From: Anaerolineae bacterium
Lineage (GTDB): Bacteria > Chloroflexota > Anaerolineae > Promineifilales > Promineifilaceae
Direction of reading: 5' to 3'
Assembly: GCA_030425205.1 (NCBI GenBank)
Contig: JAUIAP010000016.1
Location: 55,956 to 119,955, forward strand
Length of the DNA stretch: 64,000 nucleotides
In this document: piece after piece, positions 16,972 to 26,057 of the stretch
Layout of the letters: every line of letters begins with the position of its first letter
Position numbering within the stretch: position 1 is the first letter of the stretch
Translations under genes and position numbers: made by a program
The notes under the pieces: model-generated
What the model was told of the DNA's origin: nothing
The model's database searches: none
The model's input: the letters and a program-made list of their open reading frames with translations, nothing else

Positions 16972-18021
16972 ATGAAGAAACGAATAACGATCGGTGACAT
17001 CGCAATAGCCGCTGGTGTTTCAAAGCAGACGGTATCACGAGCCATCAACGACAAAGATGAGATCAGTTTAGAGACAAAAGAGCGCATTATGCAACTGGTG
17101 CGTGAATTGGGCTATCGGCCGAATCGTCTCGCCCAAGCGATGAATAGCCAGCGCACGCGCATGGTTGGCCTAGTCGTTTCTGATATCACAAACGCCTTCT
17201 TCCCAGAAATAGCGCGTGGCGCACAAGACGCAGCGATGGCGCAAGATTACACGATTCTGATCGTTAACACCGATGAAAGTGCTGACCGAGAAATACAGAT
17301 GTTGGAACTGCTGGCGGCCCAGTCGGTTGATGGGATTATCTCCTTCACACACCAAATGACCGATCGACAGTTGCTCGATTTTGCGGATGGATTTCGGCCG
17401 ATTGTGATGATCAATCGCAACATCGAACATCCAAACATTAGCCGCATCATGGTTGACAACGGTCGGGGCGCGGAAATGGCCGTCGAACATCTCATCGAAC
17501 AAGGTCATCAACACATCGCCATGTTAAGCAACATAACGTTCGCACCCGGCCACGTGCGGCGCGTGCAAGGCTATTTGCGTGCCTTGAGCCGCCATCAGCT
17601 CCCCGACTATCTGCACAGCACAAACGCCTCAAGTGACGGTGGTTACAATGGCACCATCGCCTTGTTAGGCAACCATCCCCATGTGACCGCTATCTTTTGT
17701 TACAACGACATGATGGCAATTGGCGCATTGCGTGCGTGCCAAGCGACTGGCCGGCGCGTGCCAGAGGATATTGCCATCGTCGGGTTTGACGACATCCAGC
17801 TCATCTCAATGATCACCCCATCGCTCTCTTCGATTCACGTCGATAAGTATGAAATTGGCAAATTGGCATTCATGCGCGTGCTTGAACTGCTCGAAGATGA
17901 CACAAGAAAAGCAGGTGCCATCACATTAGAACCCTCAATCAAGGTGCGCGAATCATCCCAACGCCAATCGCAGCCTAAGATGCAGGTGCGTCAAGTCAAT
18001 TCTAGATCAACCTCTTCATAA
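16972..18021 (+). CDS. LacI-family transcriptional regulator
   Basis: The N-terminal HTH is 'ITIGDIAIAAGVSKQTVSRAINDK', followed by a periplasmic-binding-protein-like sugar-binding fold ('IVGFDDI'). The start is taken at MKKRITIGDI. Confidence 0.9.
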   Translation: MKKRITIGDIAIAAGVSKQTVSRAINDKDEISLETKERIMQLVRELGYRPNRLAQAMNSQRTRMVGLVVSDITNAFFPEIARGAQDAAMAQDYTILIVNTDESADREIQMLELLAAQSVDGIISFTHQMTDRQLLDFADGFRPIVMINRNIEHPNISRIMVDNGRGAEMAVEHLIEQGHQHIAMLSNITFAPGHVRRVQGYLRALSRHQLPDYLHSTNASSDGGYNGTIALLGNHPHVTAIFCYNDMMAIGALRACQATGRRVPEDIAIVGFDDIQLISMITPSLSSIHVDKYEIGKLAFMRVLELLEDDTRKAGAITLEPSIKVRESSQRQSQPKMQVRQVNSRSTSS

Positions 18022-19241
18022 ACAGCATAGGCACGAAAGCCAAGCTGCAACGCCCGCGCACGGATGGCGGGGAATTTTGCGGTTGGTTGAGTCAACAGCA
18101 GCACGGGATTGTAACCAGCACGCACAAGTCGATGTAACGCGGCGGTCGTTGTGATGTCCCCATTGGGTGTGAGGATAAAGATGGTCGTTCCCCAGCCCAG
18201 TTTGAGTGTGGCGTGGGCGATAAATTGAAAGAGTGGTTGCGATGGGCAGCTTTCAACCCGCGCCAAAAGCTGCAAAATGTTCATTAAGTGGGGGTGACCC
18301 GTGCGGACAGGAATAGTGTTGCCGTGTTGCGTGGGGGAATCGGCCGAATTTGCCAATATCCGTCCTGTCCCCTCGTCAAAATTGACCGCATCGCCGCCCA
18401 ATGGATCAAACCCATTTGTCACCAGTCCAACCGCTTGCCGCCGCTCGCTACAGTGCGCGGCTAAAGAGGACGCTGCCGTAATCGCCCACTCAACGCGGTC
18501 GTGCAGACCGCGCCGTTCATAGTTATCATCGTTCAGATCGAGCAGGATAAAGGCCTGTAGCGAAATAGCGGGTTCGAGTGTTTTGACCATCAATCCCCCG
18601 CCCGCGCCAGCTTGCGATCGTGCGGACACCTTCCAGTTGATATGGCGCAAACTATCGCCAGCCCGATATTCACGCACGCCAATCGGCCGAGCTGGATCGG
18701 CATACAGCCGTTGATTGCTAACCAGCGTGCCAAACGGCAGACGCGAGGGTAGACGTAGCTGTTCGATTGGCACGATATGGGGATAAACGGTTAAGTATTG
18801 TGCGGGAAAGGTGGCCTCAATATTTTGAAAGCCAAAGATGTCGCCCGATTCGAGCTTGAGCGGCCCGATGCGATAGTAGCCGCGACGCATGGCACGCGCC
18901 GTATAGTGAAATTCGGCCGAATCCATCCCCCCCAATGCAACCGCCGTATTTAAATCTGTCCCGCTGCGCAGTTGCAACGGCGTCATTTCACGTAGCCGCA
19001 GCCACGTCAACGGCAAGCGGCTTTGATTTTCTACCGTCAACGTAATCGGGACTTCTTCTCCCAAAAAAGCGTTTGGGGCAAAAGCACGACTGATATGCAG
19101 TTTTGTAATTGAACGCGGAACTTGCCAGCGCGAATAAAGATAGAGTGCAGCGAGAACGTAGGCAACGTAGAAGATGAAGCTGACACGCAACAGGCCAGCA
19201 ATTAATAAGATAACGAGGATAAGCAGGGGAAGGCGTTTCAA
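17991..19241 (-). CDS. DUF58 domain protein with N-terminal membrane anchor
   Basis: The two-helix N-terminus is 'LLILVILLIAGLL..FIFYVAYVLAALYLY'. The DUF58 signature is 'VREYRAGDSLRHINWKVSARS'. The 3' end overlaps the convergent LacI gene by 31 nt. Confidence 0.75.
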   Translation of the reverse strand: MKRLPLLILVILLIAGLLRVSFIFYVAYVLAALYLYSRWQVPRSITKLHISRAFAPNAFLGEEVPITLTVENQSRLPLTWLRLREMTPLQLRSGTDLNTAVALGGMDSAEFHYTARAMRRGYYRIGPLKLESGDIFGFQNIEATFPAQYLTVYPHIVPIEQLRLPSRLPFGTLVSNQRLYADPARPIGVREYRAGDSLRHINWKVSARSQAGAGGGLMVKTLEPAISLQAFILLDLNDDNYERRGLHDRVEWAITAASSLAAHCSERRQAVGLVTNGFDPLGGDAVNFDEGTGRILANSADSPTQHGNTIPVRTGHPHLMNILQLLARVESCPSQPLFQFIAHATLKLGWGTTIFILTPNGDITTTAALHRLVRAGYNPVLLLTQPTAKFPAIRARALQLGFRAYAVYEEVDLELT

Positions 19242-19303: not shown

Positions 19304-19375
19304 TTGCGGGGACAGGATTCGAACCTGCGACCTCCGGGTTATGAGCCCGACGAGCTGCCTCTGCTCTACCCCGCG
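19304..19375 (-). tRNA. Initiator tRNA-Met (anticodon CAT), CCA not encoded
   Basis: The minus strand reads CGCGGGGTAGAGCAGAGGCAGCTCGTCGGGCTCATAACCCGGAGGTCGCAGGTTCGAATCCTGTCCCCGCAA. It has a C1-A72 mismatch and three G-C pairs closing the anticodon stem (GGG/CCC). It is near-identical in pattern to E. coli tRNA-fMet. Confidence 0.92.
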
Positions 19376-19439: not shown

Positions 19440-20492
19440 TCAGCAAACGAGCGACCGATCGACATCGGCAATTGTCGCACAGCCACAGAGGTAGAGCGCA
19501 TTCTCAATTTCAAAACGTAGCATTTCAAGCACGTGGGCAACCCCTGCCCCACCACCGACGGCCAGCCCCCAAAGCGGCGGTCGGCCGATCAAAACCGCCT
19601 GCGCGCCTAATGCGAGCGCCTTGACAACATCGACGCCACGCCGCACGCCGCCGTCCATCAAGATCTCGATTTGATCGCCCACCGCATCGGCGATGGCGGG
19701 GAGCGCATCAATTGTCGCTATCGCCGTATCCAACTGGCGGCCGCCGTGGTTGGAGACGATGATCCCCTGCACGCCAGCGTCCACTGCACGCCGCGCATCG
19801 TCATCGCGCAAGATCCCCTTGAGCCAAACGGGAAGTCGCGTCTGTTCTTGCAGCCAGCGCACATCATCCCACGATAGGTTGTGCTTTGTGTGATCGCGCA
19901 CAAAGACGCCCCAACCGCCACTCAGATCAATGCCAAACTCGTCAATGTGCGGGCGTGCCAGCACGTCGGGAAAGGTGAAGCCAACCCGATTGAGATTCTC
20001 GCGCAACCCGGCAACGGGGAGATCGACGGTAAGCACGATGGCGGAACAATCGGCCGATTCTGCCCTTTCCAACATGCGCTCGACAATCTCACGGTTATAC
20101 GCCATATAAAGCTGAAACCACGTGCGATGCCCTGCGGCAACAACGTCTTCAACGGCTGTCGTTGAAAATGTACTCAACACCTGTGTAATGCCCGCCCCCT
20201 GCGCCGCTCGTGCCACGCCAAGCTCTGCCTCTGGATGTGCCAGCCGATTGACCGCTGTCGGCGCAATCATCACGGGCATCGCCATCTGTTCACCTTGAAT
20301 CGTCGTCTCAAGCGAAACGGCATCGATCCCCATCAACATGCGCGGGCGCAACCGAATCCGCTCAAACGCGGCACGATTGTCGCGCAGCGTGATGTTGTCG
20401 GTCACACCGCCCGCATAGTAGGCATACGCACCCGCTGCCATCACTTCCTGCGCCGCCTGTTCATAGTCGAATAAGTTGAGTAGTTGAGTCAT
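19440..20492 (-). CDS. FMN-dependent alpha-hydroxy acid oxidase/dehydrogenase (LldD / glycolate oxidase family)
   Basis: 'VSNHGGRQLD' and 'LMDGGVRRGVDVVKALALGA' are present, with a TIM-barrel FMN pattern. The start is taken at MTQLLNLFDYEQAA (20492). Confidence 0.88.
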   Translation of the reverse strand: MTQLLNLFDYEQAAQEVMAAGAYAYYAGGVTDNITLRDNRAAFERIRLRPRMLMGIDAVSLETTIQGEQMAMPVMIAPTAVNRLAHPEAELGVARAAQGAGITQVLSTFSTTAVEDVVAAGHRTWFQLYMAYNREIVERMLERAESADCSAIVLTVDLPVAGLRENLNRVGFTFPDVLARPHIDEFGIDLSGGWGVFVRDHTKHNLSWDDVRWLQEQTRLPVWLKGILRDDDARRAVDAGVQGIIVSNHGGRQLDTAIATIDALPAIADAVGDQIEILMDGGVRRGVDVVKALALGAQAVLIGRPPLWGLAVGGGAGVAHVLEMLRFEIENALYLCGCATIADVDRSLVC

Positions 20493-20591
20493 GGCCGTTT
20501 TTATACCATATTCGGTCGGGGGAAAACGAGTGATTGTCACGTTGATATAGGTGTAAGCTGTGATGCGCAAGGATTCTATGGGATATGAGTA

Positions 20592-20646
20592 GGAGCGCGA
20601 CCAGCTTGGTCACCAATCAAACAAGCGACCAAGCTGATCGCGCTCC
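20592..20646. promoter_or_regulatory. 20-bp inverted repeat in a divergent intergenic region
   Basis: GGAGCGCGACCAGCTTGGTC (20592-20611) pairs with GACCAAGCTGATCGCGCTCC (20627-20646). There is one mismatch and a 15-nt loop. Confidence 0.5.
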
Positions 20647-20694
20647 CAGAAACATATCTGCCTGCACGATTTTGCACCATTTCTCGATCACCTA

Positions 20695-20733
20695 TTGACT
20701 TAGTGTATTTTCTACACTATAATAGTTAGTGTA
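20695..20733 (+). promoter_or_regulatory. Consensus sigma-70-type promoter with embedded operator-like repeats
   Basis: The -35 is TTGACT (20695-20700), the spacer is exactly 17 nt, and the -10 is TATAAT (20718-20723). TAGTGTA-TTTTC-TACACTA (20701-20719) is a perfect 7-bp inverted repeat that fills the spacer. A third TAGTGTA lies at 20727-20733. The ATG of the next gene is at 20747. Confidence 0.7.
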
Positions 20734-20746
20734 ATCGAGACACGAA

Positions 20747-21814
20747 ATGTTAAATCTATTCAACAACTACCTACTCAAGCTGCGACAGGCAGCACAACCA
20801 GAAGACGTGTTTGGCAGATTGTCCGCCCCGCAAGCAGAATGTTTGCGCGAGTTGTATAGGGACATGGTGATCGAACTGCATCCCGACCACAATCAACTGC
20901 GCGTCGCAGAGGCGACGGAAGCGTTTAAGCTGCTACAAGAGTGGCACGAGGCGGCCAAGATCAAGGTGGCGGCTGGGACGTATGGCACAGAGCCAACGCT
21001 TGAGGTTTCTTCACGCCGACATCACTATGTCAGCGCAAAACCAGCCATCGCAGGTGATTTGAGTGATGTTTTTACGGCGCGTGCGGATGGTAAGCGCAAG
21101 GTTGTTGTGAAGGTGGTGCGCCATCCAAAAAACAATGACCTACTGCTGGCGGAAGCGACTGCGCTACGTGAGCTGCATGAGCATCTCGACCGCACGCCGC
21201 TACGCGCACATTTCCCCGTCCTAATCGAGACATTTCGTCTCAAAGATGAAAGCGGTGCAGAACGCCAGACAAACGTGTTGCGCCATGAGGCGGAGGTGTT
21301 TTCACTGGCCGACGTGCGGAAAAAGTATCCAGACGGGATTGATCCGGCGGATGCGGCGTGGATGTTCAATCGCATGATTGCGGCATTGGGCAAGACACAT
21401 GAGGTCGGGTTGGTGCATGGGGCGATTGTGCCGGAGCATGTGTTGATTCGGCCGAAAGATCACAACGGCATCCTGATCGACTGGTGTTACAGCGTGCGTT
21501 CAGGTGAACAGATCAAGGCGATCAGCCCATCCCGCAAGGCGTTCTACCCGCCCGAAGTGTTGCAAAAGTTAGCGGCAACACCCGCTACAGACTTATTTAT
21601 GGCGGCGCAATGTATGATCGAGATTCTCGGCGGCGATGTGGCAACGGGGCAACTGCCATCCAGTGTGCCGAAGCCAATTGCAGCCCTGCTACGTGCGTGT
21701 TTGATTCCTGCGCCGAAGCGACGTTATCAAAACGCCTGGCATATTTTTGACGATTTCAAAGAGATTTTAGAACGGCTTTATGGTGAACCTACGTTCAGGT
21801 CGTTCACGATGTAG
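20747..21814 (+). CDS. J-domain protein fused to a protein-kinase-like (probable pseudokinase) domain
   Basis: The J-domain pattern is 'LRELYRDMVIELHPDHNQ...ATEAFKLLQEWHEAAK', with HPD at 20879-20887. The kinase-like lobe has 'KVVVKVVRHP' (VAIK-like Lys) and 'LLLAEATALREL' (alphaC Glu). 'GLVHGAIVPEHVLI' replaces HRDxKPxN, so HGA stands in for HRD. 'ILIDWCYS' replaces DFG. Confidence 0.7.
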   Translation: MLNLFNNYLLKLRQAAQPEDVFGRLSAPQAECLRELYRDMVIELHPDHNQLRVAEATEAFKLLQEWHEAAKIKVAAGTYGTEPTLEVSSRRHHYVSAKPAIAGDLSDVFTARADGKRKVVVKVVRHPKNNDLLLAEATALRELHEHLDRTPLRAHFPVLIETFRLKDESGAERQTNVLRHEAEVFSLADVRKKYPDGIDPADAAWMFNRMIAALGKTHEVGLVHGAIVPEHVLIRPKDHNGILIDWCYSVRSGEQIKAISPSRKAFYPPEVLQKLAATPATDLFMAAQCMIEILGGDVATGQLPSSVPKPIAALLRACLIPAPKRRYQNAWHIFDDFKEILERLYGEPTFRSFTM

Positions 21815-21857
21815 TGTGGCAATGGGCAAAAACCCATTCAACAATAAGGAGCATATC

Positions 21858-22850
21858 ATGGGTTATTCAAAATGGAGCAATGCAGCATTCGATTCACGCC
21901 AAACAGACCGTAAGCGCACTGGCACAACGGCGTTCAAGTATGACAAACACGTGCGCCAAACAGGGGTTGTCAAGATCCACCCCGACATGGATCCGTATGG
22001 CAAAACGCGGGAGAGTCGCGACAGCGACGACCATCCCGAATCAGTATCAATCGCCGTCCTGTTTGACGTGACGGGTTCGATGGGACAGGTTCCGCGCGTC
22101 ATGCAAACAAAACTCGGCGCACTGATGCGTGTGCTGATCCAAAAGGGGTATCTCGAACATCCACAAGTGCTGTTTGGCGGTATTGGCGATGCCTATTGCG
22201 ACCGTGTGCCATTGCAAATCGGGCAGTTTGAGTCAGGTCTTGAGATGGACGACGATCTCGGCAAAATTTTCATCGAAGGTGGCGGCGGCGGTCAGGTATA
22301 CGAGAGCTATGAGCTTGGCGTGTACTTTATGGCGAAGCACACGTCGATCGATTGCTGGGAAAAGCGCGGCAAGAAAGGATATCTGTTCACGATTGGGGAC
22401 GAAAAGCCGTATGACGTCGTGCGCAAGGAGCAGATTGAGAAGCACATTGGGGACAAGGTGCGTGGGAATGTCGATTCGGCCGAAATTTTCAACGAGGCCC
22501 AGAAAATGTACGAACATTTCCACATCATTCCAACCAACACCGCACACGGCAAAAACCCCGCCATCCATGAGCATTGGCGCAAATACATGGGTGAGCGCGT
22601 GCTGATCTTGGACGACGAAACGGCCGTCTGCGAAACGATTGCGCTCGCCATCGCCCTCTGTGAAGGCACCATCGACGATCTGTACAGTGGAGTCGATGAT
22701 CTGGTCAGCGCAGGCTATGACGCGACAGCGACAAAGGCGGCAACGTCTGCCCTCAAGCCATACGCTACACGGCGTGAAGGGTCTCTCGTCAAAGTAGTCG
22801 CAGGTAAATTGAAAGCGGCTGTCGCTGGCGGCGACGACGGACGACTTTAG
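21858..22850 (+). CDS. von Willebrand factor A (vWA) domain protein
   Basis: AAGGAG lies 7 nt upstream of the ATG at 21858. The MIDAS-like motif is 'AVLFDVTGSMG', with 'FGGIGDAYCDRVPLQIGQFES', 'EGGGGGQVYESYE' and 'GYLFTIGDEKP'. There is no signal peptide. Confidence 0.7.
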   Translation: MGYSKWSNAAFDSRQTDRKRTGTTAFKYDKHVRQTGVVKIHPDMDPYGKTRESRDSDDHPESVSIAVLFDVTGSMGQVPRVMQTKLGALMRVLIQKGYLEHPQVLFGGIGDAYCDRVPLQIGQFESGLEMDDDLGKIFIEGGGGGQVYESYELGVYFMAKHTSIDCWEKRGKKGYLFTIGDEKPYDVVRKEQIEKHIGDKVRGNVDSAEIFNEAQKMYEHFHIIPTNTAHGKNPAIHEHWRKYMGERVLILDDETAVCETIALAIALCEGTIDDLYSGVDDLVSAGYDATATKAATSALKPYATRREGSLVKVVAGKLKAAVAGGDDGRL

Positions 22851-22857
22851 TTAGCAA

Positions 22858-22899
22858 CAGTTTGCAGTGGACAGCCCCAAAACTGTTCACTGCAAGCTG
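22858..22899. repeat. Intercistronic hairpin, family B-like (CAGTTTGCAGTGGACAG / CTGTTCACTGCAAGCTG)
   Basis: The 17-bp stem has 2 mismatches and a loop CCCCAAAA. It lies between the vWA stop (22850) and the PurA-like start (22915). Confidence 0.65.
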
Positions 22900-22914
22900 A
22901 TCACTTGGTAAATC

Positions 22915-24243
22915 ATGCGACAAGCTATTCTAACCACCGATCTCGGCTTTGGTGACGCGGGTAAAGGGGCGATCACCGACTATCTGACACGCCAGCACAA
23001 CGCACACACTGTCGTGCGCTTCAACGGCGGCGCGCAGGCGGGGCATCGCGTTGTGACCGATAGCGGTGAACACGTCTTTTCCCAATTTGGCAGCGGCACG
23101 TTGGCAGGGGCGCGCACCCATCTTTCACGCTTTATGCTTGTCGAACCGTTGGCCATGCTAGCCGAAGCAGAACATTTACAGGAGCTAGGTATTCGTGATC
23201 CGTTTGGCATGACAACAATTGATGAACGCGCATTGGTGACAACACCGTTTCAGCGCGCGGTCAATCGGTTGAAAGAGCTGGCGCGCGGCGACGGGCGGCA
23301 CGGCAGCTGCGGGATGGGGATTGGCGAGACGATGGTCGATTGGCTGGCACATGGGGGGGATGTCCTCTATTGTGGCGACTTTTCCACCCCTACCCAACTC
23401 AAAGCCAAATTGCGCCATCTTCAGGCTGTCAACCAAGTCAAAGCGGCCACGCTGCGCGATCAACTCCCCGACACGCCACAGGCGCAACAGGAATGGGATT
23501 GTCTGCACGATCCCAACGCCGTAGACCGCATCATTGTGGCCTATGCCCCCTTTATTGAACTTGCGCATGTCGTTCCCAGCGACTACCTGCACCTTTTGCT
23601 TGGGCGTGATGGCACGATCATTTTTGAACCAGCCCAAGGAGTGCTGCTCGATGAGTGGTACGGGTTTCATCCGTATACGACGTGGAGCACAACCACATTG
23701 GCAAATGCAGAAACATTGCTACACGAAGCGGATTACAAGGGTAAAGTTGTGCGCATCGGCATCACGCGCGCCTACACCCCGCGACATGGCGCGGGCCCCT
23801 TGCCAACGGAAGGTGCCCAATTGACAGCACTACTGCCCGATGCACGCAATGGCTTTGATGCATGGCAGGAAGGGTTTCGAGTTGGCTGGCTCGATCTGGT
23901 GTTGTTGCGCTATGCGCTAAGCGTCGTCGGCAAGCTCGACGGGCTGGCCGTGACCTGTTTGGATCGCGTTGTGGGGTTGCCCGAGTTGAAGATTTGTACG
24001 AGTTATCGGGGGAGTGGCGAGATCGAAAAGTGGCAAGGGACAGTGGGAATTTCGGCCGAAAACGCCATTCTCGCCCATCAATCCCAATTAACCGCCGACC
24101 TCCTGCAAAGCCAACCCAACTTGCAGACGATCGATTCGGCCGAAACGCTATTAACAACTATCGAACGAGAGACAGGACTCGACGTGCTGATTGAAGGGTG
24201 GGGTGCGGCAGCGGATGCAAAGCGGAAAAGAGAAGGCGCGTAA
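22915..24243 (+). CDS. Adenylosuccinate-synthetase-family ligase, divergent (PurA-like paralogue)
   Basis: It aligns by eye with PurA motifs: GDAGKGA (GDEGKGK), VVRFNGGAQAGHR (VVRYQGGHNAGHT), GSCGMGIGETM (TTGRGIGPAY), FEPAQGVLLD (FEGAQGTLLD) and TRAYTPRHGAGPLPTE (KAYSTRVGAGPFPTE). The Asp-binding loop TTGRRRRTGW is replaced by AWQEGFRVGW. KLD becomes CLD. Confidence 0.75.
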   Translation: MRQAILTTDLGFGDAGKGAITDYLTRQHNAHTVVRFNGGAQAGHRVVTDSGEHVFSQFGSGTLAGARTHLSRFMLVEPLAMLAEAEHLQELGIRDPFGMTTIDERALVTTPFQRAVNRLKELARGDGRHGSCGMGIGETMVDWLAHGGDVLYCGDFSTPTQLKAKLRHLQAVNQVKAATLRDQLPDTPQAQQEWDCLHDPNAVDRIIVAYAPFIELAHVVPSDYLHLLLGRDGTIIFEPAQGVLLDEWYGFHPYTTWSTTTLANAETLLHEADYKGKVVRIGITRAYTPRHGAGPLPTEGAQLTALLPDARNGFDAWQEGFRVGWLDLVLLRYALSVVGKLDGLAVTCLDRVVGLPELKICTSYRGSGEIEKWQGTVGISAENAILAHQSQLTADLLQSQPNLQTIDSAETLLTTIERETGLDVLIEGWGAAADAKRKREGA

Positions 24244-24244
24244 T

Positions 24245-24303
24245 ATTGCGTGTTGCGTATTGCGTATTGACCGCTGGATACGCACCACGCAATACGCAAT
24301 ACG
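24245..24303. repeat. Heptad-periodic hairpin (TATTGCG/GTGTTGC units) between convergent genes; probable bidirectional terminator
   Basis: attgcgtgttgcgtattgcgtat ... tacgcaccacgcaatacgcaatacg lies between the PurA-like stop (24243) and the recJ stop (24342). Confidence 0.7.
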
Positions 24304-24341
24304 TGTGAGCTATCTCTGTAGAGCCAAACCCACTCTCCCCC

Positions 24342-26057
24342 TCACGCCGCTGGTCGAATATCCTTAATCATCAACTGCAACGTCCGTCGCCCGTTCCACT
24401 CATTGACGTTGACGCTATAAACAATATCGACGTATTGTGGCATTTGGGTAGCCCAAGAGGCTTGGCGGAAAGCGATCGTTTTGAACCCTGCGCGACCGTT
24501 GGTCACTTCCATTTGTAGATGGGTCTGATCTTTGCCGACGACGCGATGGCTGAGCACTTCGACACCTGAGGACATAAAGATCGGCCGATGATTCTCCATC
24601 CCACACGGCTCTAACTGTTGCAAATTTTCATACAACGCCCAGTCGATTTGATCGAGGTCGATTTCTGCGTCAATGTCGATGCTCGGCAGAAGTTCCTTGC
24701 CTTCAAGTGCGGTGCGGGCGATGTCGGTCATCTGCTCTTGGAAGAGTGGTAAATTTTTGTTTTCGACCGTAAAGCCAGCGGCAGCCGCATGTCCACCATG
24801 CCGCAAAAGCAGATGTGAAATTTCATCCAGCGCATCGGTGATGTGAAATTCATCAATCGAACGACAGGAGCCACGACTTTCCTCTTCCCCTTTCTCGATG
24901 ATGATGGCGGGGCGATAATGTTTGTCGGACAGGCGGCTGGCAACAAGACCCACGACCCCAGCCACAAAATTTTCACCCGCTGCGATCAAAATGGGGGCAT
25001 CTTCATCAATCATCCCTTCCGCCGCAATGCCCAAATCTTCAGTCAATTTTTGCCGCTTGCGGTTGAGCGATTCCAGTTCACGGGCGAGATTTAAGGCTGA
25101 GCGGCGGTCATGTGCGGCGAGCAGTTTGGCAGCGTCGTAGGCATGAGAAAGACGACCAGCCGCATTAATCCGCGGGCCGATGTTGAAGGCGATGGTTTCG
25201 GCCGAAATCGCCCCACCCTTGACGTTCGCCACTTCTCCCAACGCCGCAATCCCCGCACGCTTTGTGCCGTTCATCACGCGTAACCCATCGCGCACCAGCT
25301 TACGATTCTCGCCTAACAGCGGAGCCAAGTCGGCTACCGTCCCAATGGCGACGAGATCGAGCACGTTGTTGAGATCGAAGCGCACATAGTTTGGCATCGC
25401 CTGATAACAGGCCTGCGCCAATTTATAGGCAATCCCAACCCCTGCCAACATCTTTTCGGGATAGTCACAGGGTAGTTTGGGGTTGATGACGGCGAGTGCG
25501 GGGGGAATTTTTCGGCCGATGCTGTGATGATCGGTCACGATCATATCCAATCCGATGCTATTGGCGTGTTCAACCTCTTGCACTGAGCGAATACCGCAAT
25601 CAACCGAAATGACCAAATCTGCGCCGACCGTCTCCTTGATATGGGTGAGCGCATCGTTGTTCAAGCCATACCCCTCATCAACGCGATCGGGAATGTAGGG
25701 CTGTGCATTGCGGCGGGATATTCCCAAGCCACGCAACGCCTCTGTGAGCAACACGGTCGATGTCACACCATCCGCGTCAAAATCACCATAGACAACAATT
25801 CGTTCGTCCTGCTCAATCGCCTGTTGAATCCGCGCAACCGCCTTATCCATGTCGGGCAGCAGAAACGGATCTTCAGTTTCAAGATAATGCCCCTCAATAA
25901 ATCCTTGAATTTGAGCGGGGGTGGTCAATCCACGATTAAACAGCACCTGTACAAAGACAGGGTGCAGATTTGGCAACTGTGTTGCGAGTGTCGGTGCGAT
26001 TTTTGGTTGAACGTGCCAGCGTTTGGCGCGCAGGTCGAGCGGTCTTACAATTCCCAT
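24342..26057 (-). CDS. recJ: Single-stranded-DNA-specific exonuclease RecJ
   Basis: The DHH-family motifs 'VYGDFDADGVTS', 'ISVDCG' and 'IVTDHH' are present, together with DHHA1 'GGHAAAAGF'. Confidence 0.93.
   Translation of the reverse strand: MGIVRPLDLRAKRWHVQPKIAPTLATQLPNLHPVFVQVLFNRGLTTPAQIQGFIEGHYLETEDPFLLPDMDKAVARIQQAIEQDERIVVYGDFDADGVTSTVLLTEALRGLGISRRNAQPYIPDRVDEGYGLNNDALTHIKETVGADLVISVDCGIRSVQEVEHANSIGLDMIVTDHHSIGRKIPPALAVINPKLPCDYPEKMLAGVGIAYKLAQACYQAMPNYVRFDLNNVLDLVAIGTVADLAPLLGENRKLVRDGLRVMNGTKRAGIAALGEVANVKGGAISAETIAFNIGPRINAAGRLSHAYDAAKLLAAHDRRSALNLARELESLNRKRQKLTEDLGIAAEGMIDEDAPILIAAGENFVAGVVGLVASRLSDKHYRPAIIIEKGEEESRGSCRSIDEFHITDALDEISHLLLRHGGHAAAAGFTVENKNLPLFQEQMTDIARTALEGKELLPSIDIDAEIDLDQIDWALYENLQQLEPCGMENHRPIFMSSGVEVLSHRVVGKDQTHLQMEVTNGRAGFKTIAFRQASWATQMPQYVDIVYSVNVNEWNGRRTLQLMIKDIRPAA

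Follow-up and report, generated by a model that had tools for sequence, protein, structure and literature searches.

A conserved gene pair for a PurA-like ligase and a vWA-fold protein, with an accessory J-domain pseudokinase and NrtR-type operator sites, in an Anaerolineae genome

The window analysed here is a 64,000-nt stretch of contig JAUIAP010000016.1 from an Anaerolineae bacterium (GCA_030425205.1; positions 55,956–119,955, forward strand), and the subject of this work is a module of three genes within it, which we call g1, g2 and g3 (Table 1). They encode, in this order, a J-domain pseudokinase, a von Willebrand factor A (vWA)-fold protein and a relative of the adenylosuccinate synthetase PurA. 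A preliminary description, made from the sequence of the window, had placed three co-oriented open reading frames on the forward strand behind a textbook promoter and ahead of a terminal hairpin. The reading frames were confirmed at their coordinates, the promoter by its agreement with the sigma-70 consensus, and the hairpin by its folding energy. The spacers between the genes are 43 nt (g1–g2) and 64 nt (g2–g3) long, no terminator-like site was found in either of them, and a ribosome-binding-type box, AAGGAG, lies 6 nt 5' of the g2 ATG. The three genes are a real operon.

Table 1. Features of the module and its surroundings, in positions of the window.
Feature	Position	Strand	Remarks
g1	20747–21814	+	Open reading frame, 355 aa; J domain and pseudokinase
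g2	21858–22850	+	Open reading frame, 330 aa; cytoplasmic vWA-fold protein
g3	22915–24243	+	Open reading frame, 442 aa; GTP-dependent ligase paralogue of the PurA family, substrate pocket remodelled
Sigma-70-type promoter	20695–20723	+	TTGACT-17 nt-TATAAT; 11 of 12 consensus matches; top-scoring within 20000–25000
Operator site 1	20700–20720		TTAGTGTATTTTCTACACTAT; 21-bp palindrome, GT-N7-AC core; between and over the −35 and −10 hexamers
Operator site 2	20726–20746		TTAGTGTAATCGAGACACGAA; 26 bp past site 1; over the likely transcription start and short leader
Strong hairpin	24236–24306		−40.1 kcal/mol, z = −5.48; between the convergent g3 and recJ; without a U tract
g2–g3 spacer	22851–22914		8-nt inverted repeat TTGCAGTG ... 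CACTGCAA, 18-nt loop
Inverted repeat	20592–20646		20 nt, 95% complementary, followed by a T-rich run
tRNA-Met gene	19304–19375		
DUF58 gene	17991–19241	−	1.5 kb upstream of the module

The g3 protein matches PF00709 over its full length (residues 11–432, 215 bits, E = 1.7e-63) and is 32% identical to Escherichia coli PurA (EC 6.3.4.4), and its homologues are publicly annotated as 'adenylosuccinate synthetase'. However, it reaches only 169.2 bits against the NCBIfam purA model NF002223, far under the equivalog cut-off of 402, and 135 bits against TIGR00184 (cut-off 396). Residue numbers here are those of E. coli PurA, to which 71 members of the family were aligned. The residues of catalysis and GTP binding, D13, K16, G17, H41, Q224, T239 and D333, are invariant (71/71), so that g3 has in common with PurA the fold, the P-loop, the Asp13 base, the His41 acid, Gln224 and the guanine-specifying Asp333. 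By contrast, the aspartate site and the contacts to the 5'-phosphate of inosine monophosphate (IMP) have been replaced, mostly by other invariant residues. Among the IMP contacts, N38 is always Gln, T128 Ser and T129 Cys; in the pocket, S240 is always Trp and V273 His; and in the aspartate-binding site, T300 is always Trp and T301 Gln, R303 has been lost by deletion, and 67 of the 71 proteins have Phe for R305. Position 143, at which an Arg of the other subunit binds the IMP phosphate in PurA, varies and is His in 51/71 and Tyr in 10/71. Since the catalytic residues are invariant and the substrate contacts have been exchanged for other invariant residues, the alignment indicates that g3 is an active enzyme with a different, conserved substrate pocket, or pair of substrates. 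The mapping bears out the remodelled substrate loop that the preliminary description had noticed in this PurA homologue. A canonical purA, which that description had named as a case against its own reading, was rejected as the identity of g3 on the score of 169 against 402 bits and the loss of T300, T301 and R303.

Synthesis of Z genomes by a PurZ-type enzyme was also rejected. PurZ has Ser at position 13 (PMC12884076), whereas Asp13 is kept in g3, and g3 scores 27 bits against the PurZ model, which has a cut-off of 300. In a survey of phage PF00709 proteins, PurZ was set apart from 'other PurA homologs', which were left undiscussed (PMC12884076). Unlike PurA and PurZ, g3 is always paired with a vWA gene. 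To our knowledge, the only products so far linked to enzymes with the PurA fold are adenylosuccinate and the Z base. Because the catalytic machinery of g3 is kept while its pocket is different and strictly conserved, the family very probably makes a novel N6-substituted purine compound or conjugate. A metagenomic member of the family, P0219 (698 aa), carries a C-terminally fused Peptidase_S51 domain of the cyanophycinase or dipeptidase E type; this is possibly a hint of an aspartyl-peptide-related substrate, or a mere fused neighbour. Two other candidate fusion proteins, P0263 and P0295, were rejected, as they look like frameshifted gene calls.

The g2 protein has the vWA α/β fold and is cytoplasmic and leaderless. 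Searches of Pfam, NCBIfam, PADLOC and the PDB sequences gave no match and no curated vWA model. The protein was assigned to phrog_2971, and a BFVD search returned generic vWA proteins only, plus one intein-bearing mycobacteriophage homologue. The invariant columns of a diverse alignment include M1, G2, R51, E52, D55, D70, G73, S74, Q120, E125, G143, E149, D181 and E182. The predicted metal-ion-dependent adhesion site (MIDAS)-like motif reads D70-x-T72-G-S74 ... D181, with T72, the one listed residue that is near-invariant, replaced by Ser in Rhizobium phage Y65. These results agree with the leaderless vWA protein with a DxTGS variant of the MIDAS motif that had been read from the window earlier. 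A conserved insert that is specific to the family, PLQxGQFE ... EGGGGG, is of low confidence in the model. All g2 homologues that were examined start with Met-Gly (83/83 bacterial and phage loci and 42/42 diverse representatives). Methionine aminopeptidase is predicted to process such a start to a free N-terminal glycine, and the mature g2 protein is therefore predicted to carry one. The C-terminus is a variable, flexible tail of low model confidence, which ends in ...RL in 68 of the 83 loci.

An intein-like insert interrupts some g2 homologues, namely those of the metagenomic P0276, of the Mycobacterium phages Iota, FoxtrotP1, Pinkcreek and ET08 (H47, H48, H58 and H66), and of phage Sauce (BFVD A0A3G3M5V4, 595 aa). 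The insert of P0276 separates the conserved residues KKGY from FIIGDE (KGYLFxIGDE motif), beside the last MIDAS Asp. In Iota, FoxtrotP1, Pinkcreek and ET08, the tblastn match is in two pieces with about 760 bp between them.

It is certain that g1 has a kinase-type fold. Its AlphaFold model, made with 63 homologues, has a predicted local distance difference test score of 93.6 and consists of a helix (residues 29–44), HPD (45–47), a second helix (50–75) and then a bilobal domain. The J domain spans about residues 28–75 and the pseudokinase domain about residues 85–350, in which HGA stands in place of HRD and DWC in place of DFG. The Pfam matches of g1 are sub-threshold, both that to DnaJ (residues 32–68, 23.3 bits, gathering score 27.8) and that to Pkinase (residues 103–298); many g1 homologues have precomputed PF00226 and PF00069 matches, and g1 matches phrog_3043 'kinase' over its full length (5e-54). 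In a census of motifs in 96 bacterial and viral homologues, HPD is retained in about 90 and the DFG Asp in 81, and the VAIK Lys (K122), the αC Glu (E136) and the αF Asp are retained across the set. The position of the HRD Asp is Ala in 91, Asn in 2, Gly in 2 and Ser in 1 of the proteins, and the position of the catalytic-loop Asn is His in 90. Since the HRD Asp is never Asp (0/96) and the catalytic-loop Asn is mostly His, we regard g1 as a J-domain protein whose kinase-fold part is a conserved pseudokinase or, if an enzyme at all, a non-canonical one. The preliminary description was therefore right both about an N-terminal J domain with intact HPD and about a kinase-like fold devoid of the HRD Asp.

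The module is widespread. Relatives of g2 form at least 7105 clusters at 90% identity and 1795 clusters at 50% identity, and g2 is 63–70% identical across most Chloroflexota matches. A bacterial scan, with one genome per species and a profile from a closer alignment, gave at least 579 confirmed stretches. The best 80 of these belong to Chloroflexota, Actinomycetota and Planctomycetota, and the closest of the 80 is in an Ardenticatenaceae metagenome-assembled genome (91% identity). By tblastn, the order g1–g2–g3 is found in about 65 of 83 bacterial loci. In Chloroflexota the module is flanked by ordinary housekeeping and metabolic genes; in Actinomycetota its distribution is sporadic, and it also occurs on large plasmids of Rhodococcus (megaplasmids), Tsukamurella and others. 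Furthermore, 220 phage records carry the module, 201 of them from cultured Mycobacterium phages of the Bixzunavirus group and the others from Rhizobium and Vibrio phages. The Bixzunavirus cassette is annotated in the order kinase, hypothetical, small open reading frame and 'PurA-like'. A scan of viral contigs, many of them 100–400 kb long, gave at least 546 matches, and in the best 80 of these loci g3 directly follows g2 in 79 and g1 precedes g2 in 51.

With the same order in about 65/83 bacterial and 51/80 viral loci, the arrangement is far beyond chance. The check for co-occurrence proposed in the preliminary description thus found the trio conserved across phyla. The pair g2 and g3 occurs without g1 in Rhizobium phage Y65, in Vibrio phage phiTY18 and in several bacterial lineages. 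Since, in addition, g3 follows g2 in 79/80 viral loci and the two adjoin each other in most bacterial loci, the core unit is the g2–g3 pair, and g1 is accessory. Clustering of the flanking reading frames gave no further recurrent family in the best 80 viral loci, nor in the bacterial loci, where, however, it overlooked an NrtR-like gene of the high-GC loci that is described below. Just 5' of g2 in phages that lack g1, phiTY18 (L090:4215–4919), RHph_Y65 (L089:3777–4568) and L158, lies a gene for a conserved protein with a Met-rich C-terminal half and no Pfam match, which could be an alternative partner of g2.

The presence of g1 goes together with the ending of g2. In 65 loci g1 accompanies an RL-ending g2, in 12 both g1 and the RL ending are missing, and 3 loci depart from this rule (Fisher p = 2e-11, with no correction for phylogeny); the 12 come from Planctomycetota, Caldilineaceae and several genera of actinomycetes. 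In the viral loci, g2 has a polar-then-Leu/Val (x-[LV]) ending in 43/51 loci with g1 and in 4/27 without it. Because the ending of g2 tracks the presence of g1, we infer that the C-terminal tail of g2 may be read by the pseudokinase domain, or by DnaK that the J domain has loaded. The nearest analogy for such tail reading is GAK/auxilin, a eukaryotic kinase and J-domain co-chaperone that directs Hsc70 to the C-terminal tail of clathrin. Here too, one protein combines a kinase fold with a J domain, and a flexible C-terminal tail of the client is apparently the handle. However, the order of the domains is reversed in g1, its kinase is dead, only the folds are shared, and the client would be a vWA protein.

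The promoter of the operon is overlaid by two palindromes (Table 1) with the consensus TTAGTGT-N7-ACACTA. In the window, TAGTGT-N7-ACAC is found only at these two sites (0.03 expected), as is the shorter GTGT-N7-ACAC. In 19 of 23 distinct loci of Chloroflexota, Ktedonobacteria included, the palindrome immediately precedes the module, usually as a pair with a spacing of about 25 bp, and these loci have no copy of it elsewhere. Where g1 is missing from a Chloroflexota locus, the palindrome is directly upstream of g2. Rodionov et al. (2008; PMC2330246) described the operators of NrtR, a repressor of NAD metabolism with ADP-ribose as its effector, as 21-bp palindromes with a GT-N7-AC core. In about 50 loci of Actinomycetota, the operon opens with an NrtR-like gene whose NUDIX and NrtR_WHD domains both exceed the Pfam cut-offs; the Micromonospora protein, for example, scores 78 bits for NUDIX and 44.5 bits for NrtR_WHD. 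On a Rhodococcus plasmid, such a gene directly follows g3. An NrtR-like protein is also encoded beside the module on the viral contigs L108 and L109, on one of which TTGGTGT-N7-ACACCAT lies upstream of its gene.

A metagenome scan with the exact operator gave 120 stretches. Of these, 21 contain an NrtR-like gene, which in 11 cases has the site no more than 200 nt upstream of it. The other genes that adjoin the operator in metagenomes are an isochorismatase-family (pncA-like) gene, nadA, genes for ADP-ribosylglycohydrolase, SIR2-like and Band-7 proteins and an Hsp70 paralogue, and two g1 homologues. On the match to the published palindrome, the NrtR-like genes within the operons and those beside the metagenomic operators, the operon in the window is very probably a member of an NrtR-type regulon. 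It differs from the published NrtR regulons (PMC2330246) in that g1, g2 and g3 are not known NAD-pathway enzymes and are not among the NrtR targets given there.

Several observations were made on the surroundings of the operators and of the phage copies. About 130 nt upstream of the nrtR-like genes of the Actinomycetota operons (L031–L086), there is a conserved AT-rich block in otherwise GC-rich DNA, with a TA(T/C)GTT box followed by 2–3 repeats of the type TCTCA-N4-5-GAGA / ACTCA-N3-TGAGA, which is presumably the operator of those operons. In phiTY18, a NADAR-domain gene (PF08719, 170 bits; L090:3193–3843) lies about 1 kb upstream of g2–g3, with a relative on another viral contig (L097:2498–3019), and in Rhizobium phage Y65 (L089:570–2245) phosphoribosyltransferase-like and NMN-adenylyltransferase/Nudix genes lie 3–4 kb upstream; these neighbours are further, loose links to NAD and ADP-ribose metabolism. 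In one metagenomic stretch (L189:700–6800, Ga0302046_10013403), three NrtR-type operators precede the gene for a 513-aa Hsp70 paralogue, which is followed by genes for two proteins without a Pfam match, a Cys-rich protein and a ThiF/E1-like protein, apparently a different, also undescribed cluster under like control. A Band-7/SPFH gene is directly beside the operator in four stretches (L192:7278–8234, L258:502–1458, L271:899–1894 and L234:9992–10870); in two cases it belongs to an operon whose last gene is nrtR-like. The Band-7/SPFH genes might correspond to the 'nrtX-nrtY' targets of NrtR left unexplained by Rodionov et al. (2008).

As the best explanation overall, we propose tentatively, and at somewhat less than an even chance, that the operon is a repressor-controlled, NAD/ADP-ribose-responsive nucleotide-ligase module with DnaK-coupled control. 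The catalytic output would come from g3, as a neofunctionalised PurA-type enzyme. It would use GTP to phosphorylate the 6-oxo (lactam) oxygen of a purine-like substrate, and an amine would then displace the phosphate. This amine would be other than free aspartate, and the acceptor, with an altered phosphate end, is probably not a simple 5'-monophosphate. The g2 protein would be the obligate partner of g3, a vWA protein with a Mg-binding MIDAS that would present the substrate or else serve as the substrate. As an optional adaptor, g1 would grip the ...RL tail of g2 with its dead-kinase domain, and its J domain would fire the DnaK/Hsp70 of the host on the g1–g2 complex, leading to remodelling or recycling. 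A repressor of the NrtR family, with Nudix and winged-helix domains, would sit on the two promoter operators and block transcription, until a nucleoside-diphosphate-X ligand, for instance ADP-ribose, releases it. With release of this type, the module would therefore act during NAD consumption.

A more specific form of the proposal, which we regard as a long shot, is that g3 joins C6 of a GTP-activated 6-oxopurine nucleotide to the α-amine of the N-terminal Gly of g2. This mark would be written upon ADP-ribose sensing of the NrtR type, and DnaK would remodel g2, modified or not, through its RL tail where g1 is present; large phages would carry the pair of writer and substrate to manipulate or mimic the host signal. 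If this were true, an N6-linked purine nucleotide on the N-terminus of g2 would be a protein modification without known precedent.

Several points weigh against a nucleotide-ligase module controlled by NAD or ADP-ribose. The retention of the PurA catalytic residues in g3 is not proof of a purine substrate. The g2 protein is very conserved for an adaptor and might itself be an enzyme or a nucleotide binder. The statistics of the covariation of g1 with the RL ending ignore shared ancestry, and g1 was counted as absent when it was not found within about 6 kb. Since there is no NrtR gene in the window or in the Chloroflexota loci examined, the regulator of these loci is deduced from the operator alone, and the Actinomycetota loci lack the Chloroflexota operator and have a different, presumed operator sequence. 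The NrtR site is also missing from most phage copies, so that the link to NAD and ADP-ribose may reflect wiring in particular hosts and not point to the function.

Other explanations of the module were considered alongside this proposal. It is possible, but in our view unlikely, that it is an anti-phage or inter-phage conflict system, in which an invader protein is sensed by the vWA protein, alone or together with the pseudokinase, and the PurA-like enzyme is then released and depletes or corrupts the purine nucleotide pool, so that the infection is aborted. The sporadic occurrence in Actinomycetota, on Rhodococcus megaplasmids and in phages would fit such a role, as would the weak matches of g1 to kinase models of defence systems in PADLOC-DB 2.0 and the like operator ahead of the SIR2-like gene and the Hsp70–ThiF cluster. 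Nudix-helix-turn-helix regulators and vWA 'peptide-binding chaperones' also recur in predicted ADP-ribose conflict systems (PMC9503650). However, the g1 matches are to generic kinase domains, and neither g2 nor g3 has a match in PADLOC-DB 2.0. No nuclease, toxin or variable effector adjoins the module, and the Chloroflexota flanks are ordinary. Furthermore, the level of g2 identity within Chloroflexota is unlike that of fast-evolving sensors, and the pair is stable in the lytic Bixzunavirus genomes (201 records). The preliminary description had suggested a defence-like sensor-plus-effector related to the TerY-P triad, which consists of the vWA protein TerY, a Ser/Thr kinase and a PP2C phosphatase. 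As in the triad, a vWA gene adjoins the gene for a Hanks-type kinase fold. Identity with the triad was nevertheless rejected, since no PP2C family was found in 160 loci, in agreement with the phosphatase-free cluster described earlier, and the HRD Asp is missing in 96/96 kinase-fold homologues; in place of these, the module has a J domain and a PurA-like enzyme. Together with the absence of a recurrent partner, the lack of PADLOC matches for g2 and g3, the housekeeping flanks and conserved g2 of Chloroflexota, and the abundance of the module in lytic large phages, these results do not support the suggestion of a defence-like system.

We give still less credence to a maturation or reactivation machine, in which g3 would be the sole working enzyme, g2 would bind it through its MIDAS, and g1 would bring DnaK to fold or assemble it or to rescue it from a dead-end state, as an Hsp70-based analogue of the MoxR–vWA activases (CbbQ/CbbO and NorQ/NorD). 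In the MoxR–vWA family, the vWA proteins are adaptors for chaperone ATPases, and in the pairs CbbQ–CbbO, NorQ–NorD and CoxD–CoxE, as in the module, one enzyme and a chaperone ATPase system are genetically linked to a cytoplasmic vWA/MIDAS protein. The intact MIDAS motif in a vWA fold, the chaperone-recruiting J domain that is tied to the g2 tail, and the strict linkage of g2 and g3 would all be expected of such a machine. The chaperone link of the module is, however, a J domain, which implies Hsp70; g2 is without a Pfam vWA match and has its own Gly-rich insert, and no MoxR-type AAA+ ATPase is a recurrent neighbour in the 160 loci. Because many lineages have g2 and g3 without g1, recruitment of Hsp70 by g1 must be dispensable, and an adaptor role does not account for the invariance of the N-terminal Gly and of so many charged residues in g2. 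Ordinary purine biosynthesis, with g3 as the adenylosuccinate synthetase of the cell and g1 and g2 as unrelated neighbours, can hardly be entertained. The full-length PF00709 match and the public annotations speak for it, but it is already contradicted by the scores against the purA models, by the family-wide loss of the aspartate-binding T300, T301 and R303 and of N38, T129 and R143 at the IMP phosphate, by the copies on plasmids and phages, and by the joint travel of the three genes across phyla.

No description of the module was found in the literature or in searches of Pfam, NCBIfam and PADLOC, as the preliminary description had supposed for the trio; the g2–g3 core, the covariation of g1 with the g2 tail, the NrtR-type operator and the NrtR-like fourth gene of Actinomycetota were not part of that description. 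Phage annotators label g1 'serine/threonine kinase', g2 'hypothetical protein' and g3 'PurA-like adenylosuccinate synthetase'. The folds are known; new are their combination, the subfamily of enzymes to which g3 belongs, the family of g2 and the J-pseudokinase, with the function tentatively proposed above. The g2 proteins are a large family, with more than 7000 clusters at 90% identity, that is common to bacteria and jumbo phages and is without a Pfam model. With a dead kinase domain that reads a C-terminal tail, g1 would be a new type of bacterial and phage Hsp70 co-chaperone. The NrtR-type operator links the module to the turnover of NAD and ADP-ribose, which is the currency of many phage–host conflicts, and this provides a concrete hypothesis for its induction. 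Homologues in phages of Mycobacterium smegmatis, in Rhodococcus and in relatives of Streptomyces offer tractable hosts.

The flanking genes had been named lldD-like and recJ. The upstream neighbour is the gene of a flavin mononucleotide (FMN)-dependent dehydrogenase on the reverse strand (PF01070, 436 bits), and the downstream neighbour, on the strand opposite to the module, is a RecJ gene with DHH, DHHA1 and RecJ_OB matches. The strong hairpin between g3 and recJ is probably a bidirectional terminator, and the inverted repeat with a T-rich run directly past the FMN-dependent dehydrogenase gene, at the upstream end of the interval of the preliminary description, is probably the terminator of that gene. 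An Rfam search of the hairpin and module region gave no family above noise. Farther upstream lies a DUF58 gene, separated from the module by the tRNA-Met and dehydrogenase genes. DUF58 proteins are the usual companions of MoxR ATPases and vWA proteins; this gene is not conserved beside the module in other loci. A short inverted repeat is also present in the spacer between g2 and g3 (Table 1).

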